Assembly: GCA_019056805.1 (NCBI GenBank) | Contig: DXJG01000004.1 | Location: 30,001 to 62,000 of the forward strand | Source: Candidatus Baldrarchaeota archaeon | GTDB taxonomy: Archaea > Asgardarchaeota > Baldrarchaeia > Baldrarchaeales > DXJG01 | Length of the DNA: 32,000 nucleotides | Direction: 5' to 3' | Shown here: in pieces, positions 11,464 through 31,951 of the stretch | Numbering within the stretch: position 1 is the first letter of the stretch | How the letters are laid out: each line of letters opens with the position of its first letter | Made by a program: the position numbers and the translations under genes | Notes under the pieces: model-generated | The model's database searches: none | The model's input: the letters and a program-made list of their open reading frames with translations, nothing else | What the model was told of the DNA's origin: nothing

Positions 11464-12537
11464 TTAATTTTTAGACTTCATCAAATTCTTTATATGATAT
11501 AAACTTAGACGAGTATCCCTTAGCATTGCTCTTTTCACAATTAATTCTTTTTGCAACAATATTTTTAACGCGTTTCGAACAGTTCTTCTAGGTAACAACG
11601 TTTTTTCCGCAATTTCCTTTTGGGTCATAGGACCTTCGTATTCAAGTACCTTTAAAACAAGTTTTGCACTTGGAGGAAGGCTTTCCTTCTCTTCCCATTG
11701 TCTTACCTTCATATACAATTTTTCTTTTAATGGAGTAAAAACTCCTTCACTTAACTTAACAAATAATGCACTATATTTGGATTTCTTTATTCTAACAGTT
11801 TCTTCTTCAATATTTCTTCTAATTCTTCCATCTAAAATTATTTCACATGTAACTGGACTCTCAATTTCATCTATAATAATCTCTCTATTATCAGATACGA
11901 CAAGAGGTCTTCTAGCTTGATTTAAACTGTTTACTGGAACCACTACTAATACTGGTGTATCATATGTAACTACGGGACCTCCTGCACTAAGTGCGTAAGC
12001 TGTGGAACCTGAAGGTGTTGAAACTATTACACCGTCAGCACTATCTCTCCACATAAACTCCTCATTTATTTTAAGGGTGTAGTGAATTAGTGTTGCGCTT
12101 CTTTTAGCGAAAATTGCAATTTCATTTAATACTGGCGGTGATTTTTCACCATCTACTTCAGCTTCTATTCTAGACCTTTCCTCAACCTTCCATTTTCCCT
12201 CTAAAATATTATCAATATAAGTGTCAAAATTTGTAGTGCTTGTTTCAGCGAGAAAACCTAGGTTTCCAGGCGTTCTAACGCCTAATAAGGGTATTTGTTT
12301 ATCTTTAAGTTCTAATAGTGTTTTTAATATAACTCCGTCATCTCCAACGCAAATTAACATATCTGCATCAATATCTTTAATAGGTCTTCCTTTTAAACCG
12401 ATTTTTTTAGCTAATTTTTCTTCTACAACAATTTCTGTGCCCTTAGATTTCAAAGTACTTACTATTTTCTTTGCATAACTGGTAAATTGACGCTTTTTAA
12501 CGTCAGTTGTAACACCGAAAAGCATCTTATAATCCAC
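11464..12537 (-). CDS. nadK: NAD(+) kinase-family domain fused to a C-terminal winged-helix DNA-binding domain
   Basis: GNLGFL, LNEIAI, DGVIVSTPSGSTAYALSAGGP (NAD kinase); GGDG motif reads GDDG; C-terminal LPPSAKLVLKVLEYEGPMTQKEIAEKTLLPRRTVRNAL wHTH. Confidence 0.85.
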   Translation of the reverse strand: MDYKMLFGVTTDVKKRQFTSYAKKIVSTLKSKGTEIVVEEKLAKKIGLKGRPIKDIDADMLICVGDDGVILKTLLELKDKQIPLLGVRTPGNLGFLAETSTTNFDTYIDNILEGKWKVEERSRIEAEVDGEKSPPVLNEIAIFAKRSATLIHYTLKINEEFMWRDSADGVIVSTPSGSTAYALSAGGPVVTYDTPVLVVVPVNSLNQARRPLVVSDNREIIIDEIESPVTCEIILDGRIRRNIEEETVRIKKSKYSALFVKLSEGVFTPLKEKLYMKVRQWEEKESLPPSAKLVLKVLEYEGPMTQKEIAEKTLLPRRTVRNALKILLQKELIVKRAMLRDTRLSLYHIKNLMKSKN

Positions 12538-12702: not shown

Positions 12703-13629
12703 ATGCGAGAACAGCATATCAGAAAGCTTCAAAGAGAAATTGAGAAATTGAAAGAAGAAAAGAACGCAGTACTACTTGTTCATAACTATCAAAGACCAGA
12801 AATACAGGAGGTAGCTGACTATCTCGGAGATAGCCTTGGACTCGCAAAAAAGGCTAAAGAAACCAAAGCTGATATCATAGTTTTCTGTGGCGTTGATTTC
12901 ATGGCAGAAACAGCCTGCATACTAAATCCTGATAAAAAAGTTATAATACCCACCCTCGAAGCTCGCTGCCCCATGGCTGCTCAGCTACCCGCAGAATTAG
13001 TGAAAAAGGCGAAGGAAGTTAATCCAGAAGCACCATTCATAACCTATGTTAACACTCTCGCAGAAGCCAAGGCGGAAGCAGATGTTTGCTGTACTTCAGC
13101 AAATGCTCCTCAAATAGCTTCAGCCCTAAAAAGAAATCCCGTGCTAATGGGTCCAGATAGAAACCTAGCATGGTTTACAGAAAAAGAGACCGGTGTAAAA
13201 GTGATACCAATACCTCAAAACGGATACTGTTATGTTCATAAAAAATTTGATGCCGCTGATATCATATTCTTAAAGGAAGAGCACCCTGATGCTGTTGTAG
13301 TCGTACATCCTGAATGTGACCCTGAAGTTCAACGTTTAGCAGACTTCGTTGGTTCAACAAGCCAAATGGTAAAATTCGCGCATGAAACTGATGCAGAGAA
13401 GATCATAATAGGTACTGAAATAGGCTTAATTGATAGACTTAAACGCGAACTTCCAGACAAAACATTCATACCAGCGAACAAGGAAGCCATTTGCATCCAA
13501 ATGAAAAAGAATACGCTACAAAAAGTGAGAGATGCTCTACTCTACGAAAAACCTGTTGTTAAACTTCCCGAAGAGATTGCCAAAAAAGCCGAACGATCAA
13601 TTATACGTATGTTTGAACTAATGAAATAA
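12703..13629 (+). CDS. nadA: Quinolinate synthase
   Basis: [51 protein letters not shown] motifs including the Fe-S cysteines. Confidence 0.97.
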
Positions 13630-14291: not shown

Positions 14292-14344
14292 AGGAATTGG
14301 CGGAAGTTATTTATATCTTTAACTACCACACTAATACGGTGCAG

Positions 14345-15571
14345 ATGGTTGAGAGAGAAGTTGTTAAAGCTCTGAAACTCAATCTACTTCCCCCATCAAA
14401 GAATAAGGAACGCTTGTTATCTGAGTTATTTAGCTCTGTTGCTGCTTGCTGTAACGAGATTCTTTCAATTGCCAAATCCAAATCTCCTAAAAACTTTGCC
14501 ATTCTACACAACACCTCCTATCCTATTATTAGACAAAAATACAGTTTGCACTCCCAAATCCTCATTGATTGCATCCATCAAGTTTGGGAGAACTTGAAGA
14601 CATGCAAGAAGTTTAACCAAGTTCCAATTAGATTCAACATTCCTCGTAGTGGAAAATTCAGCAAAACAAAGCGTGGTAACCCTGTCGTTGTCTTTGCATC
14701 GTTTAACGGCAATGGTAGAATTGCATTGCCCATCAAGCAGGATGGAGCTTATAATCGCTTTATCGAGCACATCAACAATGGCTGGAAGTGCACTCAGTTC
14801 AGATTGCATAAACAGAATGGGCATTACGTTGTCATTGCCAATCTGAGAAAGAAGTTTGAAGTTAAGCAGAATTATCAAGCTGTTGTGGGTGTTGATGTTA
14901 ACAGCGGTAGCTTCGCTTTGACGGCTCTGAGAGCCGATGGTAAAATTCTCAAACAACTTTATCTTGGTAGAGATATATGGCACAAGCAGTGGAAGTTTAT
15001 GAAGAGAAGGAGCAAGCTTAGGAGTTATGCAGACAAGGGAAGTAAAAGGGCACGGCGTGCCCTTAAAAGGATAAAGTGTGATGAAAGGAACTTTGTAACA
15101 ACGAGGATATGGCAAATTAGTCATGAAATTGTTGAGATAGCAATTAGATACGATGCAGTTATAGCCATCGAGAAACTCAAGAACCTCAGAAAGAGGAATG
15201 GTAAGGGGAGAAAACCTAAGAGAGCTAACAGGAAGATACATAGAATTCCATTCGCCAAGTTCAGGATTACCATTCAATCTGTGGCATGGCAGAATGGGAT
15301 TGATGTTGTTGAAGTGCCAGCAGTGAGAACATCGCAGAAGTGTCCGAGGTGTGGCTACACGAGCAGGAAAAATTGGGTTTTCTTCGACAACAAGAGAAAG
15401 CTGTTTAGGTGTTGTAGATGTGGGTTTGAGTGCAATCCAGATAGAACTGCCTCCCTTAACATAGCAACTCTGGCTCTGGAGCGGGGCATAGGCTTTTCTA
15501 AAGCCATCTGCACCCCAGCCCCAGTGTTCCAGAGCTGGCGGGGAAGTCAGCCCCCGTGTCCGGCTCGATGA
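14345..15571 (+). CDS. tnpB: RNA-guided endonuclease TnpB
   Basis: RuvC I VVGVDVN, RuvC II IAIEKL, Zn finger CPRCG/CCRCG, RuvC III NPDRTASLNI; catalytic D-E-D present; ATG 14345 preferred over TTG 14297, which lies in the left-end stem. Confidence 0.95.
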   Translation: MVEREVVKALKLNLLPPSKNKERLLSELFSSVAACCNEILSIAKSKSPKNFAILHNTSYPIIRQKYSLHSQILIDCIHQVWENLKTCKKFNQVPIRFNIPRSGKFSKTKRGNPVVVFASFNGNGRIALPIKQDGAYNRFIEHINNGWKCTQFRLHKQNGHYVVIANLRKKFEVKQNYQAVVGVDVNSGSFALTALRADGKILKQLYLGRDIWHKQWKFMKRRSKLRSYADKGSKRARRALKRIKCDERNFVTTRIWQISHEIVEIAIRYDAVIAIEKLKNLRKRNGKGRKPKRANRKIHRIPFAKFRITIQSVAWQNGIDVVEVPAVRTSQKCPRCGYTSRKNWVFFDNKRKLFRCCRCGFECNPDRTASLNIATLALERGIGFSKAICTPAPVFQSWRGSQPPCPAR

Positions 15572-17976: not shown

Positions 17977-18705
17977 TTGAAACTCTTAATCAGCGTTACA
18001 AATAAAGATGAAGCTATAGAAGCAGTTCTCGGCGAAGCTGACATTATCGATGTTAAGAATCCAGCCGAAGGTTCTCTTGGAGCACATTTCCCAAGAATTA
18101 TAAGATCAATTAGAGAGGTCGTACCCAGGGAATTTGAGATTAGTGCTGCTATAGGAGATGTTCCTAATCTCCCTGGCACGGTTTCCCTAGCAGCTCTTGG
18201 AGCCGCTGTATGCGAAGTAGACTACGTGAAATTGGGAATGTATGGCCCTAAAAACTTTGATTCCGCTCTTTTCCTCGCTAAAGAAGTATGTAGAGCTGTT
18301 AAAGAAACAATGCCAAACGTTAAGGTCGTAATTGCTGGTTACGCTGACTATCAACGAGCGGGCTGCCTTGACCCCATGTTAATACCGGAAATTGTTAGAC
18401 GAGCAGAGGCGGATGTAGCAATGATAGACACCAAGATCAAGGACGGGAAAAAGATTTTTTCGTTTCTAAATGATCAGCAGCTTTTGTCATTCATAGATAA
18501 GGTTCATAATCATGGATTCATGGCAGCTATAGCTGGATCTCTAGGCAAGGAAGATGTAAAAAGAGTTTACGAGTTGGGGGCAGATGTCATAGGTTTTAGA
18601 AGTGCAGCATGTGTAGGTGATCGCGTTAAAGGAAAAGTTAAGAAAGAAAGGGTTTTAGAAATTAAGGAACAAATTAGAGCACTATCACATGCAAATTCTT
18701 TTTAG
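17977..18705 (+). CDS. mfnB: (5-formylfuran-3-yl)methyl phosphate synthase (DUF556)
   Basis: MKLLISV, ADIIDVKNPAEGSLGA, SAAIGD, MIDTKIKDGK, AGSL, GADVIGFRSAAC motifs. Confidence 0.93.
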   Translation: MKLLISVTNKDEAIEAVLGEADIIDVKNPAEGSLGAHFPRIIRSIREVVPREFEISAAIGDVPNLPGTVSLAALGAAVCEVDYVKLGMYGPKNFDSALFLAKEVCRAVKETMPNVKVVIAGYADYQRAGCLDPMLIPEIVRRAEADVAMIDTKIKDGKKIFSFLNDQQLLSFIDKVHNHGFMAAIAGSLGKEDVKRVYELGADVIGFRSAACVGDRVKGKVKKERVLEIKEQIRALSHANSF

Positions 18706-19367
18706 GCTTTAATGATAGTTGCTAATGGTTTCTCTCCTTCCAATATTTGTTTAATCCTTTCAGGATGTAATCCATTAACAACATAACAAGTTAATCCCTT
18801 TTCTAAAAGCAGAAATTTGGGCAAAAAGGTATCTATACATGTTTCTATATTCAATAGCTCTTTTGGTGTTATTTCTTTTAACATGAATGTTTCTGGATAC
18901 TTTTTAGGGTCTCTTGCAAAAATTCCATCAACATCTTTCACCAAAATCAGCCTTTTAATTTTTAACAATTTAGCTATGTACGCACTAATGGTATCTGAAG
19001 TAACGTCCCATGAAAAAGGAAGTTCATCTGAAGTAAAAAGTAAACGTGAAGGTAGAAAAATTGGCAGTCTTTTCTTTTTCCAAACCTCTCCTATCTCATC
19101 AAGCGTAAAAACAACTGTAGAGTTTGGAGTGATGTCAGCTAAAAGTAACCCATATTGATCCATGGCCAGTATAGCCATTCTATGCGAAGCTAAAGGAGAT
19201 AAACCATAAACCTTATCAACATTTCTTACCAAATCAGCAAACTTCCCTCCACCTGGCACTACAAGCATCTTATATTTTGCAGCAAGTTCCCCTAAATTAC
19301 TACATAGCTTTTCAAGCTCATTCCTATACCTTAGCAAGGATCCTCCAATTTTCACAACAAATTTCAA
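18702..19367 (-). CDS. mfnE: Amino-acid-kinase-family [5-(aminomethyl)furan-3-yl]methyl phosphate kinase
   Basis: VVKIGGSL, VPGGGKFADLVR, HRMAILAMDQYG, SWDVTSD, KDVDGI motifs; mfn context; TTG 19367 after GGTGA. Confidence 0.85.
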   Translation of the reverse strand: MKFVVKIGGSLLRYRNELEKLCSNLGELAAKYKMLVVPGGGKFADLVRNVDKVYGLSPLASHRMAILAMDQYGLLLADITPNSTVVFTLDEIGEVWKKKRLPIFLPSRLLFTSDELPFSWDVTSDTISAYIAKLLKIKRLILVKDVDGIFARDPKKYPETFMLKEITPKELLNIETCIDTFLPKFLLLEKGLTCYVVNGLHPERIKQILEGEKPLATIIKA

Positions 19368-19388
19368 ACATATCACCTTTTATTAATG

Positions 19389-20471
19389 TTAGAACTTCTG
19401 TGGTTTTATATCTTTTAGACCTACCAGTTTGTCTGCAACCATTAGAGCGACGCCTACAGCAGGTGCTATTATTGAAGCATCAGTTCCTAAAAACTCTTCT
19501 AAACTCACAATTTTTTTAAATCCTACTTTCTCAGCAGCCTTTTTTGCAAGAAATTCTCCACCTAACCCCACGGTGACAACTGGTATTTCTTCACAAGTTT
19601 TCGTTTTTAATCTACTATATACTTGTCTTAAACCTTCAGCTATTTGATCCACCTGTTTATCATAAACGTATCTTGCTATATCTTCAATTTCTTTCTCGGT
19701 TAACATTTCTATATCGGCGCACACAACTCTAGCTAATCTCGCCATCGCTTCTAACCTTGTTTTACCTCTTCCATCAGCAGTTTCAGTCGTATAATACTCT
19801 TCACGTATATTACCTAATATTAGGTGGACATCTCCAGAAAGAGCAAAAAGCTCCGAAGAAACCCTTGCATAGTTCCCCCTAATAGGTATTTTATCAACTA
19901 TAGCTGCTACATTAGTTCTTAAACTCCCAGTATAAACAAGTTCGCCACACATAAGTTTTTCTAAATCATTTTTCCCCAAAGCAACACATTTTCCCTCTAA
20001 TATTGGTATTATACTCGTCGTTGTACTGCCCACATCAACAACTATACAATTTTCCATGATTCGTGAAACCATCCAAGCTGTAGCAGCCCAATTAGCCGCA
20101 GCAACCTTCAAATATTCTTTCCTCGCCTCTTCAACCGTTACCAGTTCACTTTCACAATTCAAAACATAAATCGGTACATTTTTGAAGGTTTTTTCAACGC
20201 AGTCTAAAACGTGATTTATTCCCTCCCTCTTACACCAATAAACATCAGAAAGCTCCGCAGTAATAGTCACACCGACTGCTTCAAGCTTTACACCCCGCAT
20301 AATTTCCGTACCAATTTCATGTAAAGTATCCAGTAATTTATCCTTCCCAACCTTCCACAACGGAAGATATTTCTTTACTGTTCTTATTTCTTTAAGAACT
20401 CCCTCTTCAACCCTTATAAGAGAAGCCTTAGTATTAGCTCCGCCAATGTCAAAACCAGCCACATAAACCAT
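19389..20471 (-). CDS. mfnF: Hydantoinase/oxoprolinase-family methanofuran biosynthesis protein
   Basis: GFDIGGANTK, VTITAELSD, AAANW, DVGSTTTSIIPI, GELVYTGSLRTN, ARLARVVCAD motifs. Confidence 0.9.
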   Translation of the reverse strand: MVYVAGFDIGGANTKASLIRVEEGVLKEIRTVKKYLPLWKVGKDKLLDTLHEIGTEIMRGVKLEAVGVTITAELSDVYWCKREGINHVLDCVEKTFKNVPIYVLNCESELVTVEEARKEYLKVAAANWAATAWMVSRIMENCIVVDVGSTTTSIIPILEGKCVALGKNDLEKLMCGELVYTGSLRTNVAAIVDKIPIRGNYARVSSELFALSGDVHLILGNIREEYYTTETADGRGKTRLEAMARLARVVCADIEMLTEKEIEDIARYVYDKQVDQIAEGLRQVYSRLKTKTCEEIPVVTVGLGGEFLAKKAAEKVGFKKIVSLEEFLGTDASIIAPAVGVALMVADKLVGLKDIKPQKF

Positions 20472-20617
20472 TTCTACACACCTATATTTCTCATTTAATG
20501 AATTTTTTAATAGTTTAATTACAAGTCAAAGTTAATTAAATCAAAGGTACAACAACTTATCTTATATTTTAAGAATACTTCTGCTATACTAGAACTTGTA
20601 AACATGGAGGTCTTTAT

Positions 20618-21346
20618 GTGAGAATTATCCCTGTTATCGATGTTAAGAATGGTGTTGTTGTTCATGCAGTAGCTGGGCAAAGAGAGAAGTATAAACCTAT
20701 TAAAAGCGGGATATGTTCCTCAGCTGATCCATTAGAAGTTGCAGAAGTCTTCAAGAATATGGGGTTCAAAGAGCTTTATCTCGCAGATCTTGACTCTATA
20801 ACTGGTGGAGATCCTTGTTATTCTCTCTATCAAGAAATTAGTGAGACAACTAAATTATCCCTTATGGTAGATGCTGGTGTAAGTAGTGTTGAGAAATTTA
20901 AAGAACTTCTGAGACACGGCGTAGCAAAGGTGATAGTTGGCACTGAAACCCTACAAGATCTTCAATCTTTAAGAGAAATTGCACACTTATATCAAGAAAA
21001 TCTAGTTGTAAGTGTTGATCTTTTTGGAGAAAAACTGCTTAGCTTATGTGAAGAAGTAAAGTATCGAGATCCATTAACGGTTATGTTACGTTTTAAAAAC
21101 ATGGGAGTTAAAGAATTCATAGTTCTTGATTTGTCTCGTGTAGGCACCGGCAAAGGAATTGACATATCTTTTATAAGTAGAATCGTTAAAAATGTAGAAG
21201 CTTCCATTCTAGTTGGTGGAGGAGTAAAAGATACTCATGATTTACTTGAACTAAGGGATATAGGTGTTTCAGGTGTTCTTATAGCAACAGCTCTCCACAA
21301 TAAAAGTATCACAATTAACGATTTGAAAAGGGAAGGGTTTCTATGA
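20618..21346 (+). CDS. HisA/HisF-related TIM-barrel protein of C1-cofactor gene clusters
   Basis: RIIPVIDVKNGVVVHAVAGQREKYKP, LYLADLDSI, LDLSRVGTGKG, GGGV, ATALH; embedded in mfn cluster. Confidence 0.8.
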   Translation: MRIIPVIDVKNGVVVHAVAGQREKYKPIKSGICSSADPLEVAEVFKNMGFKELYLADLDSITGGDPCYSLYQEISETTKLSLMVDAGVSSVEKFKELLRHGVAKVIVGTETLQDLQSLREIAHLYQENLVVSVDLFGEKLLSLCEEVKYRDPLTVMLRFKNMGVKEFIVLDLSRVGTGKGIDISFISRIVKNVEASILVGGGVKDTHDLLELRDIGVSGVLIATALHNKSITINDLKREGFL

Positions 21347-22576
21347 AGTTAGTGTTTCGTAAATTTTCTGTTTGATTTCTTCAAAGTGTTGTTTTGCCTC
21401 TTCTAAACTTTTCCCTTTAGAAACAACTATTGCTACATCTTCTTTTGGATGTAGATGGGGTTTTGGAATAAGTAAATGAGATATAACTCCGTCTATTTCA
21501 CTAATCATCTTAACTTTCTCATCACTAAGTGTGAAGCTTTCATTAAAACGGATTTTTCCTATAATTGCATAACCTTTTTTCCTAACATTAGTTGGTATTT
21601 CTAAGCCATGTGAAGCTTTTACGATTTCAGCTCCAATATTTATATTAAGAATTTCTCTAAGTCCAAGATAAGAGGTCGTAAGCCTTGGATTAACCTCCAC
21701 TACAACAGGTTTTTCACCTGTAAGCACTAAATCCACTCCCACATACCCTTTTAACCCTTTAATTGTCTTTACAGCTTTTACAGCTTCATCTATAGCCAAG
21801 GATTCCAATGGATGTTCAAATGGTGTATGGCCTCCCTCATAAATCGACCCTTCATCTGGAGAACCAAGTTTAATATGCTGCGCATTTAACGATAACGCTG
21901 CAACTTTCTCACCATTGCTAAGAAGACTAACGCTAGCATGATCCCCCTCCAAGTATTCTTGAATTAAAAAATAACTTTCCCGTGTATCATTTCTAATTCT
22001 TTCTACAGCAGCTTTTAACTCTTCTTTCCTACTGACTAGTGAGAGTCCTGCACAGCCAACCCCATCTACAGGTTTCAAAACAACTGGATATCCTATTTTT
22101 AAAACCTTTTCTTCCAGAGATTTCAGATCTTCATGTAATGATCCTAGAAGAGTTTTAGGAATGGAGATCTGGGCATCTTTCAAAATGTTATATGTTGTGT
22201 ATTTGTTTGAGCAGATTTTAACAGCATTTGATGTTGATCCTAAAATTTTTATCTTTTCCTTCTCAAAGAAACATGTGATACCATATAGAGCTTCTTTAAA
22301 AGCTGGAGCTATTACTATTACGCCATCAACATGAGTTAAGCATGTTTCAAGGAGTTTAAGAGGATTTTTGCCCTTGGGCACAGCGAAAATTTCATCAGCC
22401 ACTAATTGACAACACTTTAAAACTCTGGAATCAATCGTGGTTATAACATGATATCCCGCCATTTTTAGGTCTTCTATAAGAGCTCGAAGCATAGCATAAC
22501 CTTCAAGAAGTATTTCTTCAATAAGTTCTCCTTGGCAAAAACCTCCAAGAGCATATTCTATGACTAATACTCGCAA
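21341..22576 (-). CDS. mfnD: ATP-grasp protein, tyramine-L-glutamate ligase-like
   Basis: EYALGG, EGYAMLRALIEDL, KPVDGVG, IQEYLEGDHASVS, GYVGVD, EVNPRLTTSY motifs; mfn context. Confidence 0.85.
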   Translation of the reverse strand: MRVLVIEYALGGFCQGELIEEILLEGYAMLRALIEDLKMAGYHVITTIDSRVLKCCQLVADEIFAVPKGKNPLKLLETCLTHVDGVIVIAPAFKEALYGITCFFEKEKIKILGSTSNAVKICSNKYTTYNILKDAQISIPKTLLGSLHEDLKSLEEKVLKIGYPVVLKPVDGVGCAGLSLVSRKEELKAAVERIRNDTRESYFLIQEYLEGDHASVSLLSNGEKVAALSLNAQHIKLGSPDEGSIYEGGHTPFEHPLESLAIDEAVKAVKTIKGLKGYVGVDLVLTGEKPVVVEVNPRLTTSYLGLREILNINIGAEIVKASHGLEIPTNVRKKGYAIIGKIRFNESFTLSDEKVKMISEIDGVISHLLIPKPHLHPKEDVAIVVSKGKSLEEAKQHFEEIKQKIYETLTS

Positions 22577-22860: not shown

Positions 22861-23036
22861 TTTAATCACCTATCAAATATTTCAACATAAAAGTATGTTA
22901 TACATGAATATTCATGTATATTTTTGCAATTACAAATTAATAATATCAAGTATAGGATCACAAACTTTTCTTTTATAAAATTGCCACGATAGGTTACTTT
23001 TTGAGACAAGTTTCTGGAAAAGCTTCCTCTATCAAT

Positions 23037-23100: not shown

Positions 23101-23784
23101 ATGTCAGCAGTAGACGACGTAGAAAAAGCAATTAGAGATTTTAAAAAAGGCAAACCGGTGTTAATTTATGATTGGCCTACCCGAGAGGGAGAAGTTGATA
23201 TGGTTTATTATGCTGGTCTCATAGACCATAGGAAGATTTACAAATTAAGAACTAAGGCTGGAGGGTTGCTATGCTTTGCCACTAACGAGAATATTGCAAA
23301 GTCATTAGGTATATCGTTGATGAGCGATTTACTGGAACGCCTAGGATATAAAGAGTTATCAGTTAAAAAAGCTTCGTATGGTGGCAAATCTCCTTTTTCA
23401 CTATGGGTTAACAGTGTGCATGTACGCACTGGTATATCTGATATTGACAGAGCTATGACTATTTCTCAACTTCACAAAGTTACATCTCTTGTAGTTAAGG
23501 GAGATACTGAACAAGCACGAAAAATGTTTTACAGCGATTTTTACGCGCCAGGTCATGTACCCATACTAATTGCTAAGGACATAGGCGTTAGAAAAGGTCA
23601 TACAGAACTTGCCATAGCTCTCGCGATTTTATCTGGTCTTGAGCCAAGTGTAGTTTTCGCTGAAATGCTGGATTATGGTCATTCATTGAGCTTGGAGAAA
23701 GCTAAGAAATTTGCTGAAAACCACGATTTAGCCTTAATAACAGGAAAAGAGTTGCTAGAAACAATCACAAAGGTGGATAGCTAA
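23101..23784 (+). CDS. ribB: 3,4-dihydroxy-2-butanone 4-phosphate synthase (archaeal type)
   Basis: PVLIYD..REGEVDMV, GGLLC, FSLWVN, TGISDIDRA.TI, PGHVPIL, RKGHTEL, AEML motifs. Confidence 0.95.
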   Translation: MSAVDDVEKAIRDFKKGKPVLIYDWPTREGEVDMVYYAGLIDHRKIYKLRTKAGGLLCFATNENIAKSLGISLMSDLLERLGYKELSVKKASYGGKSPFSLWVNSVHVRTGISDIDRAMTISQLHKVTSLVVKGDTEQARKMFYSDFYAPGHVPILIAKDIGVRKGHTELAIALAILSGLEPSVVFAEMLDYGHSLSLEKAKKFAENHDLALITGKELLETITKVDS

Positions 23785-24267
23785 ATGTATATTGTGGGAG
23801 TTGTAGATACGACGTTTGCCAGGGTAGACATGGCCAAATTCGCTATAAATACCATAAAGCAGCACCTTCCACGCGTGAAAGTGATTAGATATACGGTACC
23901 AGGCATCAAGGACATACCTGTAGCTACTAGGAAGGTTCTTGGTAAGGCAGAGATAGCTATGACATTTGGATGGGTTGGTCCAACATTGGTGGACAAGTAC
24001 AGCTACTTAGCCGCAAGCATAGCTCTAATGATGATCCAAATAGAAACGGGCAAACATGTAGTGGATGTCACAGTTCACGAGGATGAGGCCGTTGACACAG
24101 GAGAGCTCTATAAAATAGCAATTAACAGGGCTAAAGAACACGCTCTAAATGTGGTAACACTATTGACCAAGGGCTATGAGGGATTAACACCATTTGCAGG
24201 CCAAGGACTTAGACAAGGCATTCCAGATGTAGGTCCATTATTGAATCGAGGTGAAAATATTGAATAA
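23785..24267 (+). CDS. ribC: Archaeal riboflavin synthase
   Basis: [45 protein letters not shown] motifs. Confidence 0.95.
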
Positions 24268-24727
24268 TGGTAAAAGAGTTAGACTGGCAATTGTAGTATC
24301 AGAATTTAACTACGATATTACGTATTTAATGCTACAAAGAGCTATTTCTCATGCTGAATTTTTAAACGCTGAAATTAAAGTTGTCTTTAAAGTGCCAGGA
24401 TCATATGACATGCCAATTGCTGTAACTGAGCTCTTAAGGAGGGAGGAGGTAGATGCTGTTGTTGCATTAGGTGCAGTTATCCAAGGTGAAACAGGACATG
24501 ACGAAGTAGTTGCGCATCAAACCGCACGTAAGCTAATGGATCTAAGTGTACAGTATAACAAACCGGTAGCACTGGGCATTATAGGTCCCGGAGCCACTAG
24601 AAGCCAAGCTCAAGAAAGAATAGATGAATATGCTAGAAGAGCAGTCGAAGCTGCTGTTAAGACAGCCATTAGACTGGAAAAGTTCCGCGACATGAGAGAA
24701 CTTAAGGATACGATATATGTGGAGTGA
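24251..24727 (+). CDS. ribH: 6,7-dimethyl-8-ribityllumazine synthase
   Basis: [44 protein letters not shown] motifs. Confidence 0.96.
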
Positions 24728-24733
24728 GGTTTC

Positions 24734-25432
24734 ATGATTAAAATCGGTTTCGTTCAACTAATAGATTATGAAGATTGGATAAAGTCTTTTGGGCACGATA
24801 GAGAATGGGCTGTACAAGCTGCACAAGCTGATACAAATAGATCTTTCACTTTAGAAAGTGCTCAAATTGATGCTTTCAGCATTCCACTAACTTATGATTC
24901 ATACGTAATAATACTCAACTCTGTTAGTACAAGAAAATACGAAAAAATGATTCATAAGCTGTCGCAAAAAGTACCAGTTAAACTAAAGGCATACATAGGT
25001 TTTGGGAAAACGTACGTTACTGCGTTGAATAGCATTAGAGAGTTAAAGTCGTGTAATTCTATAGCAACTCAAGATGACATCGAATATACGGTAGCTGTAC
25101 ATGTAGATTTAAATAACTACTATGGCATAATCCGCGAAAAGAATTGGCACTATGTCTACGAGGTAATGAATAACCTCATAACAAACGTTAGAAACCTTTC
25201 TAACAAATATGGGGGTTTGACTTTTTACGCTGGCGGGGATAATGTGATTAGTTTCATGCCCTCTTCTACGGTTAAAAACTTCATAGACGAGATAGTAACA
25301 GACAGTGTGAAGATCGGAGTAGGCGTAGCTTCAACTCCCAGAGAAGCTCTAAAACTAGCTTCAACAGCCTTGGACATTATTAGAGATCACAAGTCTAAAA
25401 ACCAAATTTTAGTGCTGAGGTCAGAAAGTTGA
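24734..25432 (+). CDS. gch3: GTP cyclohydrolase IIa (GTP cyclohydrolase III)
   Basis: N-terminal Q-x-x-x-Y-x-x-W...DREW-x-x-Q-x-x-Q, HVDLNN, YAGGDN, KIGVG motifs; rib operon context. Confidence 0.85.
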   Translation: MIKIGFVQLIDYEDWIKSFGHDREWAVQAAQADTNRSFTLESAQIDAFSIPLTYDSYVIILNSVSTRKYEKMIHKLSQKVPVKLKAYIGFGKTYVTALNSIRELKSCNSIATQDDIEYTVAVHVDLNNYYGIIREKNWHYVYEVMNNLITNVRNLSNKYGGLTFYAGGDNVISFMPSSTVKNFIDEIVTDSVKIGVGVASTPREALKLASTALDIIRDHKSKNQILVLRSES

Positions 25433-26568
25433 TAGTAAACGTCGACTACGCACTAATAGGTCAAGACTTAGATATCATCGAGAAAGCTCATATAGAAATT
25501 ATTGACGGCATAATAGCTCATATTGGAAGAGGTCACGTAGTTCACGGAAATCATGTAAGTGTAAACCATGGTATTGCGATACCGTCGCTTGTTAATGCTC
25601 ATATACATATTTTTGATTATGCATTTTTAGAATACGGTATCGAATTAGATCTTTCAAAGCTTGTTAGAGAGCCTTACGGTTTAAAACATAAGTTACTGGC
25701 AATGTTAACAAGAGACGATATATTTTATGCGTGTAGAAGAGTTCTTGAAAAGTTGTTACGTTCGGGAGTGGCTACAACAATAATCTTTTCAGAATTAGCA
25801 GAGTGCGGCGAGGTGAAGAAGTTAGCACAAGAACTAGAAATTGATGCTGTAGTTCTTGGGAGGTCAAGAGCAAGTAGGGTGTTTACAAGCATTAAGGATA
25901 TTTTACGAGTTGCCGACGGTTTAGGTTTAGATTCGCCATTAAGATATAGTCGTGGTGAATTAAAATATATGAGAATGGAATGTAACAGATTTAGTAAGCT
26001 CGTATCAACGCATGTGGCAGAGACAAAAAGTGATTATGAATATGGAGATTTCAAAATAGCTTTAGATTACCTAGAACCAGAACTAATGGTTCATGGAGTT
26101 CACTTGAGTGAAGAAGATATTCAATTACTATCTGAAAAAGAAATATCGATCGTTATTTGTCCCAGATCTAACATGTGGTTTGATGTGGGAATACCGCCAG
26201 TAAGAAAATTATTGGAAAATAACGTTAATGTGTTGCTCGGTACTGACAATGCTGGAGTTATTGAGCCGAATATATGGCGTGAACTAGAAACTACATATAA
26301 TATTTTAAGAATGCAGGGAGGAATATATGTAGACCCTAAAGAGATACTTAAAATGGTTACAACAAATGTTACCAAAATTAAGAGACTTGGAAGCAAGGTT
26401 AGCAATGTAATTGATGAGGGATGCAAGGCGAACTTTACGATACTAGATTCTTATGAGTTGGGAGTGAGAAGATCACAGAACATATATGCAACAATAGTTA
26501 AAAGGGGTTCTCCGTCTGCGGTTCGCTGTCTTATAAGAGGTAATAAGAAAATTGAAATTCCAGCGTGA
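25429..26568 (+). CDS. Metal-dependent amidohydrolase (chlorohydrolase/deaminase type)
   Basis: NAHIH (HxH), THVAE (HxxE), VHGVH, CPRSN, LGTDN metal ligands; start overlaps gch3 stop. Confidence 0.88.
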   Translation: MIVNVDYALIGQDLDIIEKAHIEIIDGIIAHIGRGHVVHGNHVSVNHGIAIPSLVNAHIHIFDYAFLEYGIELDLSKLVREPYGLKHKLLAMLTRDDIFYACRRVLEKLLRSGVATTIIFSELAECGEVKKLAQELEIDAVVLGRSRASRVFTSIKDILRVADGLGLDSPLRYSRGELKYMRMECNRFSKLVSTHVAETKSDYEYGDFKIALDYLEPELMVHGVHLSEEDIQLLSEKEISIVICPRSNMWFDVGIPPVRKLLENNVNVLLGTDNAGVIEPNIWRELETTYNILRMQGGIYVDPKEILKMVTTNVTKIKRLGSKVSNVIDEGCKANFTILDSYELGVRRSQNIYATIVKRGSPSAVRCLIRGNKKIEIPA

Positions 26569-26641
26569 AACAACATAAAGTTCACTCCAATTATATGCTA
26601 CTTTGCTTGTTAAGGTTATTAGGGCATCCTTGGTGAAAAGT

Positions 26642-27331
26642 ATGGGTAAATGCTTTGTTATTGTCTATTCCACAATGACAATAGATGGTAAAATAGCTAG
26701 TAAGATTCGTTATAGCCAGCTAAGTTGTCCATACGATTTAAAAAGACTTCACAAGCTTAGGGCCGAGAGTGACGGTATAATGGTTGGAGCAAATACGGTT
26801 ATTGTGGATGATCCATCGCTTAGAGTTAAATACGTTAATGGTAAGAATCTGGTTAGGAATCCGGTTAGAATCGTGGTCGATGGATTATTAAGAACTCCTC
26901 CGTCAGCGAGAGTTTACAGGCTAAAGACGGCTAAAACCATTGTTCTAACAACATCTCTGGCACCAAAAAGCAAAATTAAAGCGTTAAAATCTCTTGGTAT
27001 CGAAGTCATAATATTTCCAGAAGGGCCGATAATTAATATGAAAGATGCGATGAATGAGCTTTGTAGCAGAGGTTTAGAAAAGATAATGGTTGAAGGTGGG
27101 GGAGAGTTATTATGGCATCTTTTTAAGGAAAATGTAGTTAATGAACTTCATGTAACAATAGCACCGTACATATTTGGGGGAAGAGAGGCTGTAAGCCTAG
27201 TTATGGGAGAGGGTTTTAAAACAATAGATGACGCTAGAAAACTAGAGCCGTTAAGCGTAAATGTCTGTGAGTGTGGAAAAGAAATACACATCAAATATAA
27301 GATTGTAGACGGACTAACAAAAAGTGGTTGA
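26642..27331 (+). CDS. arfC: 2,5-diamino-6-(ribosylamino)-4(3H)-pyrimidinone 5'-phosphate reductase (RibD C-terminal/Rib7 type)
   Basis: MTIDGKIA, LHKLRAESDGIMVGANTVIVDDPSL, PVRIVVD, IMVEGGG, APYIFGG motifs; no deaminase domain; ATG 26642 after GGTGA. Confidence 0.9.
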   Translation: MGKCFVIVYSTMTIDGKIASKIRYSQLSCPYDLKRLHKLRAESDGIMVGANTVIVDDPSLRVKYVNGKNLVRNPVRIVVDGLLRTPPSARVYRLKTAKTIVLTTSLAPKSKIKALKSLGIEVIIFPEGPIINMKDAMNELCSRGLEKIMVEGGGELLWHLFKENVVNELHVTIAPYIFGGREAVSLVMGEGFKTIDDARKLEPLSVNVCECGKEIHIKYKIVDGLTKSG

Positions 27332-27467: not shown

Positions 27468-28028
27468 CTAAAGGGTTTCAGGAGAGAGATCTAAGGTCTT
27501 TTTTACTTTAATCCAATCAACATCTGTTTCGACACAACCATCTCTGAGTAAAACTACTCCTTGAGCAGGTATTCCTACTTTTTCACAAGCAATACATCCA
27601 AGAACTAGTTCTTTCTGACAAGCAACCCCTAATATTGCCTTGGGTTTGAAAGTTCTAATTATCTTCTCGATAATTGATCCTCCAGGAATGATGAATACCT
27701 TGTATCCCATTTTTTCGGCATATTTCTTTATTTCTGGGATCTTACATTTGTTGCATTCCTTACATTCATATCCAAATTCTGTTAACTCTGCTTCGCATGT
27801 TCTGCTTCTTAAACACTGGGGTAAAAGTAAAATTCTATTGGAAAAATCAGTTTCAGCGAATTTATTTTTATGAAGTTTATTTTTCATTTCAATATATAAT
27901 TTCATTAATTCTTTTTCATCTATACCTAGTTTAATTGCAAGTTGTTCGATTTTTTCAAGTATTATAGGGGAAGGTTCAGATAAAGCAACCTTTTTTAAAA
28001 TCTTCATTAAGATCTTATTGTCCGTCAT
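27468..28028 (-). CDS. DUF116 family Cys-rich protein
   Basis: ILLLPQCLR..C, CKECNKC, IPGGS, GVAC..EL, GCVETDVD motifs. Confidence 0.85.
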   Translation of the reverse strand: MTDNKILMKILKKVALSEPSPIILEKIEQLAIKLGIDEKELMKLYIEMKNKLHKNKFAETDFSNRILLLPQCLRSRTCEAELTEFGYECKECNKCKIPEIKKYAEKMGYKVFIIPGGSIIEKIIRTFKPKAILGVACQKELVLGCIACEKVGIPAQGVVLLRDGCVETDVDWIKVKKTLDLSPETL

Positions 28029-28372
28029 TCTTCAAACCAGATCTCCAATTTTATTTTTTCTTATGTCGAATATTTGTATCCCATCCCACAAGTATTAACT
28101 ATAATTTATGTTTTTCGTTACCATTCTATACATTCTTCGGAGCATACAACACGCATACATTTCCCAAATAGAATTATACGCTTGAAATTAAGGACGTTGA
28201 CGCTTAAAAAATAAAATCATTTTGTTCTATAAAATTTCAACACTTTGTATCAAGTTTAAGATATTCCACCCTTAGTGACTATTCTATTTACTTTTTTTAG
28301 GGTTTACAGTGAATAGGTTCTTATTCAAATTCCCGTAAATATGTATGTGAAAACACGGGGGTGTGTAATGAT

Positions 28373-29239
28373 ATGTCTTTACCCAATCTAGTGCTAAGGG
28401 AAAAACTTAGAAAAATGCTGGAAGAGGATTTAGGATTTGGAGATATTACCACAGAAATTGTTGTTCCCGAAAATCTTATGGCTAAAGCGCAAATAATTGT
28501 AAAAGAATCAGGTTTCATAGCTGGTATAGAAGAAGCTTCTATACTTCTCAAAGAACTTGACATTAATGTTAAAAGCAAGGTTAAAGATGGAAGCAAGGTG
28601 AATGCTGGAACAGTCATTATGGAGATAGAAGGTCCAGCAAGGTCAATTTTAATGTGTGAGAGAACAATTCTAAATTTACTTATGAGGATGAGTGGAATAG
28701 CAACTCTAACAAACCTAATGGTTGAAAGAGCAAGAGAGGTAAATCCAAAAATTACAGTGGCTGGCACAAGAAAAACTGTTCCTGGGCTCAGATATTTTGA
28801 CAAAAAGGCAATAAAGATTGGTGGGGGAGATACTCATAGGTTAAGATTAGATGACTGTGCTTTGATCAAGGATAATCATATCGTAGTTGCTGGAGGAGTT
28901 AAAGAGGCTATAAAAAGAGTTAAAGAGGCAGTAAGCTTTACTAAGAAGATAGAAGTAGAAGTGCAAAGCATCGAAGGCGCTTTAATAGCAGCTAAAGAAG
29001 GTGTAGATATAATAATGTTAGACAATATGAAACTCGAAGAAATTAAAGAAGTGATTAAGAAATTGGAGGAGGAAGGGTTACGAGATAAGGTTTTAATCGA
29101 AGTTTCAGGTGGAATAACCCCCGAAAATATAAAAGAATATGCAGAAACGGGAGTTGACATAATATCATTAGGCTACTTAACACACTCCGTAAAAGCACTT
29201 GATATGAGCCTCAAGATAACAGAAATAATTAAAGAATAA
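28373..29239 (+). CDS. nadC: Nicotinate-nucleotide pyrophosphorylase (carboxylating), quinolinate phosphoribosyltransferase
   Basis: EDLGFGDITT, ERTILN, SGIAT, TRKTVPG, HRLRLDD, LIKDNH, IEVEV, IMLDNM, EVSGGI motifs. Confidence 0.97.
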   Translation: MSLPNLVLREKLRKMLEEDLGFGDITTEIVVPENLMAKAQIIVKESGFIAGIEEASILLKELDINVKSKVKDGSKVNAGTVIMEIEGPARSILMCERTILNLLMRMSGIATLTNLMVERAREVNPKITVAGTRKTVPGLRYFDKKAIKIGGGDTHRLRLDDCALIKDNHIVVAGGVKEAIKRVKEAVSFTKKIEVEVQSIEGALIAAKEGVDIIMLDNMKLEEIKEVIKKLEEEGLRDKVLIEVSGGITPENIKEYAETGVDIISLGYLTHSVKALDMSLKITEIIKE

Positions 29240-31036: not shown

Positions 31037-31951
31037 ATGGAAGATAACACAGTTTTGTTCTTTGAAGTTTTAAAGCTTTACACCGAACTTGTTGAACTTG
31101 AAAAAAGATTATCCACGGAGAAAAATATGCAACATGAATTAATACAAAATATCATGAGAAGAATTAAACGACTTAATAAGCTAAATAAAGATAATTGGAT
31201 TTTCTTCATCAAAAGTTTACCTTTGGAATTTTTCCTTTCCAGTTCTACAGATTTTACATCAAAAGATAATTTTATGAGATTTGTGAGAATATTTCGTAAA
31301 CATCTAGAGAAAAATATTGCTTACTCTCGATATTCATCAAAACTACATTTAAAAGATGCTATTTTTAAAGAAAACAAACTTCAACTACTTTTCCCCATGG
31401 AAGAGTTCAATCCAGGCTATTTATACAAAGAAGGATGGAAACCTGTTTTAATTACAGTTCCTCACGCAACTCCACCGTTCTCAGATAAAAATGTGGATAA
31501 AATAGCTTTACAAACAGCCAAATTATCTGGAGCACATGTCCTTATTTCAACAATTTCAAGAATATATGTGGACCCCAATAGACCTGAAGCTAGAATTACA
31601 CCGTTTAGAAGGATAATAGAGCGTCTAACATTACGAGAAGGAAAAATAAAAGTTATTTTGGATTTGCATGGCACTTTAAGAAGCGATGAAGAAATTGATG
31701 TTGAGATAGGGGTCTTTAGAAAACTTACTGCCGATGAGGAAATTATAGAGAAGTTGCTTACTCATTTTCAAAAAAGAGGGTTGAAATGTGAACTTGAAGT
31801 GAACAATTTTATTGGTGGCGATATTATTTTGCATCATTCCTTAGTTCCAGATATTCAGGCAATTCAAATTGAATTATATCCTAAAGCAAGAAATATACTA
31901 CGTAGAAATGTGATCGAAGCACTAACTGAATTTATAAAAGATTTTAAATAG
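31037..31951 (+). CDS. N-terminal helical domain fused to an N-formylglutamate amidohydrolase-like (Zn exopeptidase fold) domain
   Basis: VLITVPHA, SD, SRIYVDPNR, ILDLHG, IQIEL motifs; AGGTGA RBS. Confidence 0.65.
   Translation: MEDNTVLFFEVLKLYTELVELEKRLSTEKNMQHELIQNIMRRIKRLNKLNKDNWIFFIKSLPLEFFLSSSTDFTSKDNFMRFVRIFRKHLEKNIAYSRYSSKLHLKDAIFKENKLQLLFPMEEFNPGYLYKEGWKPVLITVPHATPPFSDKNVDKIALQTAKLSGAHVLISTISRIYVDPNRPEARITPFRRIIERLTLREGKIKVILDLHGTLRSDEEIDVEIGVFRKLTADEEIIEKLLTHFQKRGLKCELEVNNFIGGDIILHHSLVPDIQAIQIELYPKARNILRRNVIEALTEFIKDFK

Follow-up and report, generated by a model that had tools for sequence, protein, structure and literature searches.

To our knowledge, phosphatase aside, deamination of the pyrimidine ring is the only step in the biosynthesis of archaeal riboflavin and of the F420 chromophore that still lacks a proven enzyme. 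Which protein performs it is a question raised by a 32,000-nucleotide stretch of a Candidatus Baldrarchaeota genome (assembly GCA_019056805.1, contig DXJG01000004.1, positions 30,001 to 62,000), hereafter called the window, in which a gene for a 379-residue amidohydrolase, P0001, lies on the plus strand at 25429-26568 among riboflavin (rib) genes. A first-pass annotation of the window had proposed that this gene encodes the 2,5-diamino-6-ribitylamino-pyrimidinone 5'-phosphate deaminase. Our analysis supports this proposal and indicates that P0001 is probably the archaeal riboflavin/FO pyrimidine deaminase, acting on 2,5-diamino-6-ribitylamino-4(3H)-pyrimidinone 5'-phosphate (DArPP). The assignment is based on the fold of the protein, its active-site motifs, its orthology to HVO_2483 of Haloferax volcanii, its strict co-occurrence and adjacency with the reductase gene arfC, and the lack of a RibD-type deaminase, and it is also favored by family-specific invariant residues that are not found in the paralogues encoded by the same genome.

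P0001 carries the metal-binding and catalytic motifs that had been noticed in the first-pass annotation, namely, HxH (H58-x-H60), HxxE (H195-x-x-E198, present as THVAE), a histidine (H222), and an aspartate (D273), all of which are invariant in an alignment of 20 family members. When a profile of this alignment was compared with solved structures, the best match was Tm0936 (118 bits), with the HxH, HxxE, His, and Asp residues of P0001 in register with the Tm0936 motifs NTHTH, HLYET, AHCVH, and GTDG. An AlphaFold2 model built on the alignment reached a mean predicted local distance difference test (pLDDT) score of 94 and a predicted template modeling (pTM) score of 0.93. The top matches of this model in the Protein Data Bank (PDB), obtained with Foldseek, were exclusively COG0402 enzymes (TMq 0.78-0.86, identity 14-21%), comprising 5'-methylthioadenosine/S-adenosylhomocysteine (MTA/SAH) and adenosine deaminases, the isocytosine deaminase Vcz, guanine deaminases, and atrazine/triazine hydrolases. 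No structure closer than these was found in the PDB by Foldseek, and no formamidase was present among the top solved structural relatives. The residues that mark COG0402 enzymes are all present, with HxH on strand 1, HxxE on strand 5, His on strand 6, and Asp on strand 8. As modeled, P0001 is a COG0402-type deaminase of the amidohydrolase superfamily with a (beta/alpha)8 barrel and a predicted mononuclear metal center; judging from the conserved ligands, a single divalent metal (Zn or Fe) would be bound.

Isocytosine and guanine deamination convert a 2-amino group to an oxo group by hydrolysis on a 2-amino-4-oxopyrimidine ring, which is the same reaction that the riboflavin pathway needs. Isocytosine deaminase Vcz (7WW2/8IS4), guanine deaminases (2UZ9, 6OHB, and 2I9U), and 8-oxoguanine deaminase share their fold and HxH/HxxE/H/D site with P0001, as well as the type of reaction predicted for it, the hydrolytic loss of a C2 amino group. 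However, P0001 is only 14-21% identical to these enzymes and 40-100 residues shorter, has a PxGLKH loop of its own, and presumably acts on a substrate with a ribityl phosphate chain. The best sequence-profile matches, Tm0936 and other MTA/SAH deaminases (1P1M and 4F0R) together with DadD-type 5'-deoxyadenosine deaminases, align with P0001 at all catalytic residues but deaminate adenine C6 of nucleosides, and the genome encodes separate, longer paralogues of that type. Moreover, P0001 has CPRSN where these paralogues and Tm0936 have NP(M/V/I/A)xN.

By analogy with Tm0936 and the guanine/isocytosine deaminases, H58, H60, H195, and D273 would hold the metal and a water molecule, while E198 of the HxxE motif would shuttle a proton to ring N3 with the assistance of H222. 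The substrate would be DArPP, the product of ArfC, whose C2 amino group would be replaced hydrolytically by oxygen to yield 5-amino-6-ribitylamino-uracil 5'-phosphate and ammonia. We infer that the family-specific basic residues K86 and R246 might bind the ribityl 5'-phosphate and that D63 might read the extra amino substituents.

Database models place P0001 in a defined family. Its best NCBIfam match is NF005552 (PRK07213, "chlorohydrolase"; 248 bits over residues 8-365), followed by a model scoring 93 bits, and the Pfam amidohydrolase domain PF01979 is matched with 114 bits; no match to PF02633, NF033501, or PF00383 was obtained in the Pfam and NCBIfam scans. We then aligned 16 members of the family, from Thermoproteota, Halobacteria, methanogens, Thermoplasmata, Altiarchaeota, and Thorarchaeota, with three longer paralogues of nucleoside/nucleobase deaminase type found in the same genome as P0001 (open frames of 445-459 residues). 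The catalytic residues are common to the family members and the paralogues. A further set of residues forms a signature of the rib-linked family: D63 (HxHxxD), an inserted P-x-G-L-K86-H loop (G84-L85-K86), F120/E122 (FxE), C244-P-R246-S-N, and N274 (GTDN). All of these are present in P0001, are invariant or show single exceptions across the 16 members, and are absent from the three paralogues.

This family has been considered for the missing step before. RibD-type deaminase domains are missing in Archaea, for which an untested candidate named "PyrD" exists (Rodionova 2017, PMC5397151); according to the account given there, Osterman, Overbeek, and Rodionov put it forward as a SEED role in 2010, starting from its chromosomal clustering and co-occurrence with riboflavin genes (cited in PMC5397151). 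HVO_2483 and MJ0699 were later named as the "PyrD" candidate, with experimental confirmation still needed (Pfeiffer and Dyall-Smith 2021, PMC8305020), and two 2026 reviews of riboflavin biosynthesis do not mention an archaeal deaminase.

A search seeded with a euryarchaeal-type member led to Haloferax proteins, including P0238 of H. volcanii DS2 (ADE04419.1), whose gene lies four genes after cofD. Since cofD is HVO_2479 (PMC8305020), counting locus tags from it suggests that P0238 is HVO_2483. P0001 and P0238 are reciprocal best hits, with 31% identity over 320 residues in BLASTP (E value of 8e-42), and NF005552 is the sole strong family for both. When P0238 was compared with the window genome, it matched the operon gene with 116 bits, while none of the three longer paralogues exceeded 32 bits. 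P0001 thus shares with the HVO_2483/MJ0699 family the best NCBIfam model, the catalytic and signature residues, and the clustering with arfC and rib genes, and deaminase function is predicted for both. It differs from HVO_2483 in sequence (31% identity), in being 40 residues longer, and in the position of its gene, which is part of a complete rib operon of six genes; HVO_2483, in contrast, is found near cofD. The window gene is therefore a member of a family that was already proposed for the deaminase role in 2010 and 2017, and the idea is not new but a well-supported rediscovery.

The operon itself consists of six tightly packed genes on the plus strand (23101-27331), which Pfam and NCBIfam scans identified in the order ribB-ribC-ribH-arfA-amidohydrolase-arfC. 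Both the order and every gene identity given in the first-pass annotation, where arfA appeared as gch3 and arfC as the reductase, were confirmed by these scans. The first gene, ribB (23101-23784; NF004437, 278 bits with a cut-off of 262; PF00926, 160 bits), is preceded closely by a GAGGAGGGG motif and by a TATA-like stretch rich in A and T. It is followed by ribC, encoding the archaeal pentameric riboflavin synthase (23785-24267, plus strand; TIGR01506 ribC_arch, 184 bits with a cut-off of 100.55), and by ribH, encoding 6,7-dimethyl-8-ribityllumazine synthase (24251-24727, plus strand; TIGR00114, 143 bits with a cut-off of 84.6), with a ribC/ribH overlap of 17 nt. Next comes arfA, the gene of GTP cyclohydrolase III (GCH-III; 24734-25432, plus strand; PF05165, 90.7 bits with a cut-off of 21.3), which is of a divergent, crenarchaeal type, scoring 63 bits with NF002587 and 76-124 bits against the arfA genes of Sulfolobales rib operons. 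The overlap of the amidohydrolase start with the arfA stop, also read in the first pass, takes the form of a TTGA tetranucleotide, in which the TTG start (25429-25431) overlaps the TGA stop (25430-25432); a GAGG motif is located about 8 nt 5' of the TTG, and the start call is sound because homologues start at the same residue. The last gene, arfC (26603-27331, plus strand; TIGR01508, 238 bits with a cut-off of 186), encodes 2,5-diamino-6-ribosylamino-pyrimidinone 5'-phosphate (DARoPP) reductase. The TIGR01508 match starts at residue 18, and from the sequence the real start of arfC may lie a few codons 3' of the annotated TTG. The amidohydrolase gene (X) would be translated from a single ribB-ribC-ribH-arfA-X-arfC transcript and coupled to arfA through the TTGA overlap.

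The partnership with arfC extends well beyond the window. In an even selection of 61 genomes from the same phylum, each at least 85% complete, an amidohydrolase orthologue (at least 158 bits) was found in 25 genomes and arfC (at least 160 bits) in exactly the same 25, while neither gene was found in the other 36. In all 25, the amidohydrolase gene immediately precedes arfC, with both genes on one strand. Among named genomes, a pattern scan yielded 47 orthologue loci, all in Thermoproteota (Sulfolobales, Desulfurococcales, Nitrososphaeria, and Nezhaarchaeales), and rib genes flank the orthologue in 27 of them. At least four arrangements were observed. Sulfolobales have the order ribB-ribC-ribH-arfA-X, and Nitrososphaeria have arfA-X-arfC. 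In Desulfurococcales, X and ribB-ribC-ribH-arfA are divergently oriented, and in a further arrangement X is beside arfC alone, either co-directional (X-arfC) or convergent. Linkage of the orthologue to rib genes is therefore frequent, though not universal.

The first-pass annotation had suggested setting the phyletic pattern of the gene against those of arfB and ribD; in the phylum sample, the orthologue tracks arfC in 25 of 25 genomes, and coexists with creatininase-family genes, and no RibD-type deaminase was found with it. In 24 of the 25 orthologue-bearing genomes, the bacterial RibD model matched only arfC, through its reductase half, the remaining genome giving a single weak extra match of 42 bits. 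The sole gene with a cytidine deaminase (CDA) fold in the window genome (G000, C9:300002-300358) scores 117 bits with the ComEB model and 31 bits with the RibD model and, from its sequence, looks like a deoxycytidine monophosphate (dCMP) deaminase. The absence of a RibD deaminase domain, which had been noted for the operon, thus holds for the genome as well. The N-terminal domain of RibD and fungal Rib2 carry out the same reaction as that predicted for P0001, or a neighboring one in the pathway, but they have the CDA fold (PF00383), with zinc held by Cys/His and an H/CxE...PCxxC motif, and P0001 is unrelated to them in fold and active site.

Several observations weigh against this assignment. 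The NF005552 score of P0001 (248 bits) lies below the curated cut-off of 294, as does that of HVO_2483 (284.5), and the link to MJ0699 is indirect, through the 34% identity to HVO_2483 given by Pfeiffer and Dyall-Smith and an NF005552 match in the Methanocaldococcus jannaschii control genome. The related genomes of the phylum sample are not independent, and, counted by family, the amidohydrolase-arfC pair is present in 7 and fully absent from 11, or 12 if the family of the window itself is counted, in which G018 lacks the pair. For about 15 of the 47 named loci, whose flanks are adequate, no rib gene was seen within a distance of 8 kb. The literature searched contained neither an enzyme assay nor genetics for any family member. 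Finally, the sequence of P0001 has no feature that would separate a ribosyl from a ribityl substrate.

This last point bears on the order of the reactions, as the pathway deaminase could act before the reductase, on the ribosyl compound DARoPP like bacterial RibD, with ArfC then reducing the deaminated product. The position of the amidohydrolase gene upstream of arfC in all 25 genomes would suit this order, but the order of genes says little about the order of reactions. Moreover, the M. jannaschii reductase is reported to act on the diamino ribosyl compound, the sequence of steps known from eukaryotes (Graupner 2002, as cited in PMC5397151 and PMC13028884). We thus regard deamination ahead of reduction as unlikely.

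The choice of substrate could also be wider than the pathway. The solved relatives of P0001 act on many nucleobases and nucleosides, the unlinked named loci number about 15, and the H. volcanii gene has cofD and HD-domain genes, not rib genes, in its vicinity. All of this would be compatible with a deaminase that acts on a different 2-amino-4-oxo heterocycle (such as a pterin, guanine, 8-oxoguanine, or an intermediate of the pathway that has been damaged) and would be a housekeeping or repair enzyme travelling with rib genes. Such a role is very unlikely in view of the strict presence and absence of the gene with arfC and their immediate adjacency in 25 of 25 genomes. The genome also already has its three longer nucleoside/nucleobase deaminase-type paralogues, and among the invariant residues specific to the family are two with basic side chains, which would suit a substrate carrying a phosphate.

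Besides the DArPP deaminase, the first-pass annotation had entertained, as a less likely reading, that the amidohydrolase replaces ArfB as a non-orthologous enzyme. It would then act on 2-amino-5-formylamino-6-ribosylamino-4(3H)-pyrimidinone 5'-phosphate (AFRPP), which GTP cyclohydrolase III produces, and remove its 5-formyl group to give DARoPP. The composition of the operon would fit this replacement: as had been noted, it contains arfA but no ArfB or other creatininase-type gene, and the sole creatininase-family gene of the genome is unlinked to it. The proven AFRPP formamidases, ArfB of M. jannaschii and BrbF of Sinorhizobium meliloti, belong to the creatininase family (PMC9478397). Like P0001, ArfB and BrbF (PF02633) are hydrolases of this pathway, often encoded in the same operon in other archaea, but they catalyze deformylation and their fold is unrelated to that of P0001.

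The related genomes argue against a formamidase role. ArfA was found in only 13 of the 25 orthologue-bearing genomes, and the orthologue still lies beside arfC in five others, in which ArfA is absent and GTP cyclohydrolase II is present (G003, G026, G041, G051, and G056; in one of the five, GTP cyclohydrolase II is an open frame of RibBA length). GTP cyclohydrolase II gives the deformylated product directly, with no formyl intermediate. Moreover, five genomes of one family (f16; G028, G036, G043, G048, and G053) have the arrangement ribB-ribC-ribH-arfA-X-arfC-creatininase, which corresponds to the window operon plus a creatininase-family gene. A creatininase gene also adjoins the cluster in G002 and arfA in G019 and G029, and at least one is present in each of the 13 ArfA-containing genomes. 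Both hydrolases therefore coexist in operons, leaving only the deaminase role for the amidohydrolase. In addition, the active site of P0001 is of the mononuclear HxxE deaminase type, and a formamidase role would leave the deamination step without an enzyme. Disfavored on both phyletic and operon grounds, the replacement of ArfB by P0001 is hardly probable.

With P0001 assigned to deamination, deformylation in this organism would presumably fall to another protein. The window genome (91% complete) has one creatininase-family gene (C11:121625-122335; PF02633, 237 bits), located about 66 kb downstream of the operon on the same contig, with genes for MazG, PIN, and alpha/beta hydrolase proteins as neighbors. 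The relatives closest to it, with 351-526 bits, come from G018, G010, G021, and G030, all without arfA, arfC, ribA, and the amidohydrolase, whereas it scores 90-137 bits against rib-linked creatininases. The ArfB equivalog model NF033501 gives the rib-linked creatininases of related genomes only 33-42 bits, with a cut-off of 180, and is thus uninformative for the gene in question. Elimination leaves this gene as the best candidate for ArfB, though not a secure one. Another open reading frame (ORF), at 31037-31951, 3.7 kb downstream of arfC, encodes 304 residues with a partial, weak match (39 bits) to PF05013 (N-formylglutamate amidohydrolase). It had no NCBIfam match and was not found near any of 65 rib loci or in five related genomes; it was dropped as a lead for an alternative formamidase, although not disproved. 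Because no rib-linked ArfB-type creatininase was found here and ArfA is unusually divergent, we also considered a bifunctional amidohydrolase removing both the 5-formyl and the 2-amino groups, or a divergent ArfA that releases formate itself. Either option is highly improbable; if true, the six-gene operon would be a self-sufficient route from GTP without ArfB.

Some genomes of the phylum sample stand apart in their gene content. In G018, the one sampled genome from the same genus as the window genome (3.2 Mb, 91% complete, 9% contamination), arfA, arfC, ribA, and the amidohydrolase orthologue were not found, which may reflect riboflavin auxotrophy or an assembly gap. Six genomes of one family (G008, G037, G044, G049, G054, and G059; 91-100% complete) have the amidohydrolase-arfC pair, and neither GTP cyclohydrolase III nor II was detected in them by the models used. 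The arfC match of G048 (C109:44408-45040) contains two in-frame stops, one TGA and one TAG, and could be a pseudogene or the result of a sequencing error.

Upstream of ribB, a perfect 22-nt palindrome, TATACATGAATATTCATGTATA, is present at 22899-22920, about 180 bp from the gene and inside a 524-bp intergenic region. One relative with two mismatches occurs elsewhere in the genome (C17:306664). The palindrome was rejected as an RbkR operator, as it departs from every RbkR consensus motif that PMC5397151 quotes and has only this one relative in the genome.

The rib operon sits within a methanofuran/tetrahydromethanopterin (H4MPT)-type cofactor gene cluster (17977-22576 and 27468-28028). On the 5' side are mfnB, encoding 4-(hydroxymethyl)-2-furancarboxaldehyde phosphate (4-HFC-P) synthase (17977-18705), genes for an MfnE-like kinase (18702-19376, minus strand) and an MfnF-like/TIGR03123 protein (19389-20471, minus strand), a gene for a HisA/HisF-related protein (20618-21346), and one for an MfnD-like ATP-grasp ligase (21341-22576, minus strand); a DUF116 gene lies on the 3' side (27468-28028, minus strand). 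Genes of NAD synthesis also occur in the window. A 357-residue NAD kinase with a C-terminal MarR-type winged helix (11464-12537, minus strand) is divergent from nadA (12703-13629, plus strand), and nadC is found at 28361-29239; by analogy with RbkR, the NAD kinase-winged helix protein may be an enzyme-regulator fusion for NAD synthesis. A TnpB/Cas12f1-like ORF of 424 residues with a PF07282 TNB domain (14297-15571) is probably a transposon-associated nuclease gene.

Taken together, the window adds one more tightly coupled operon to the case for this family rather than a new idea, and the comparative arguments that separate a deaminase from a formamidase role are the strict partnership with arfC, the persistence of the gene with GTP cyclohydrolase II, and its coexistence with creatininase genes. 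If the assignment of P0001 as DArPP deaminase is true, the archaeal pathway would represent a clean non-orthologous displacement, in which a TIM-barrel amidohydrolase is used instead of the cytidine deaminase fold of RibD and Rib2, and thousands of "chlorohydrolase" and "amidohydrolase family protein" annotations would be corrected.

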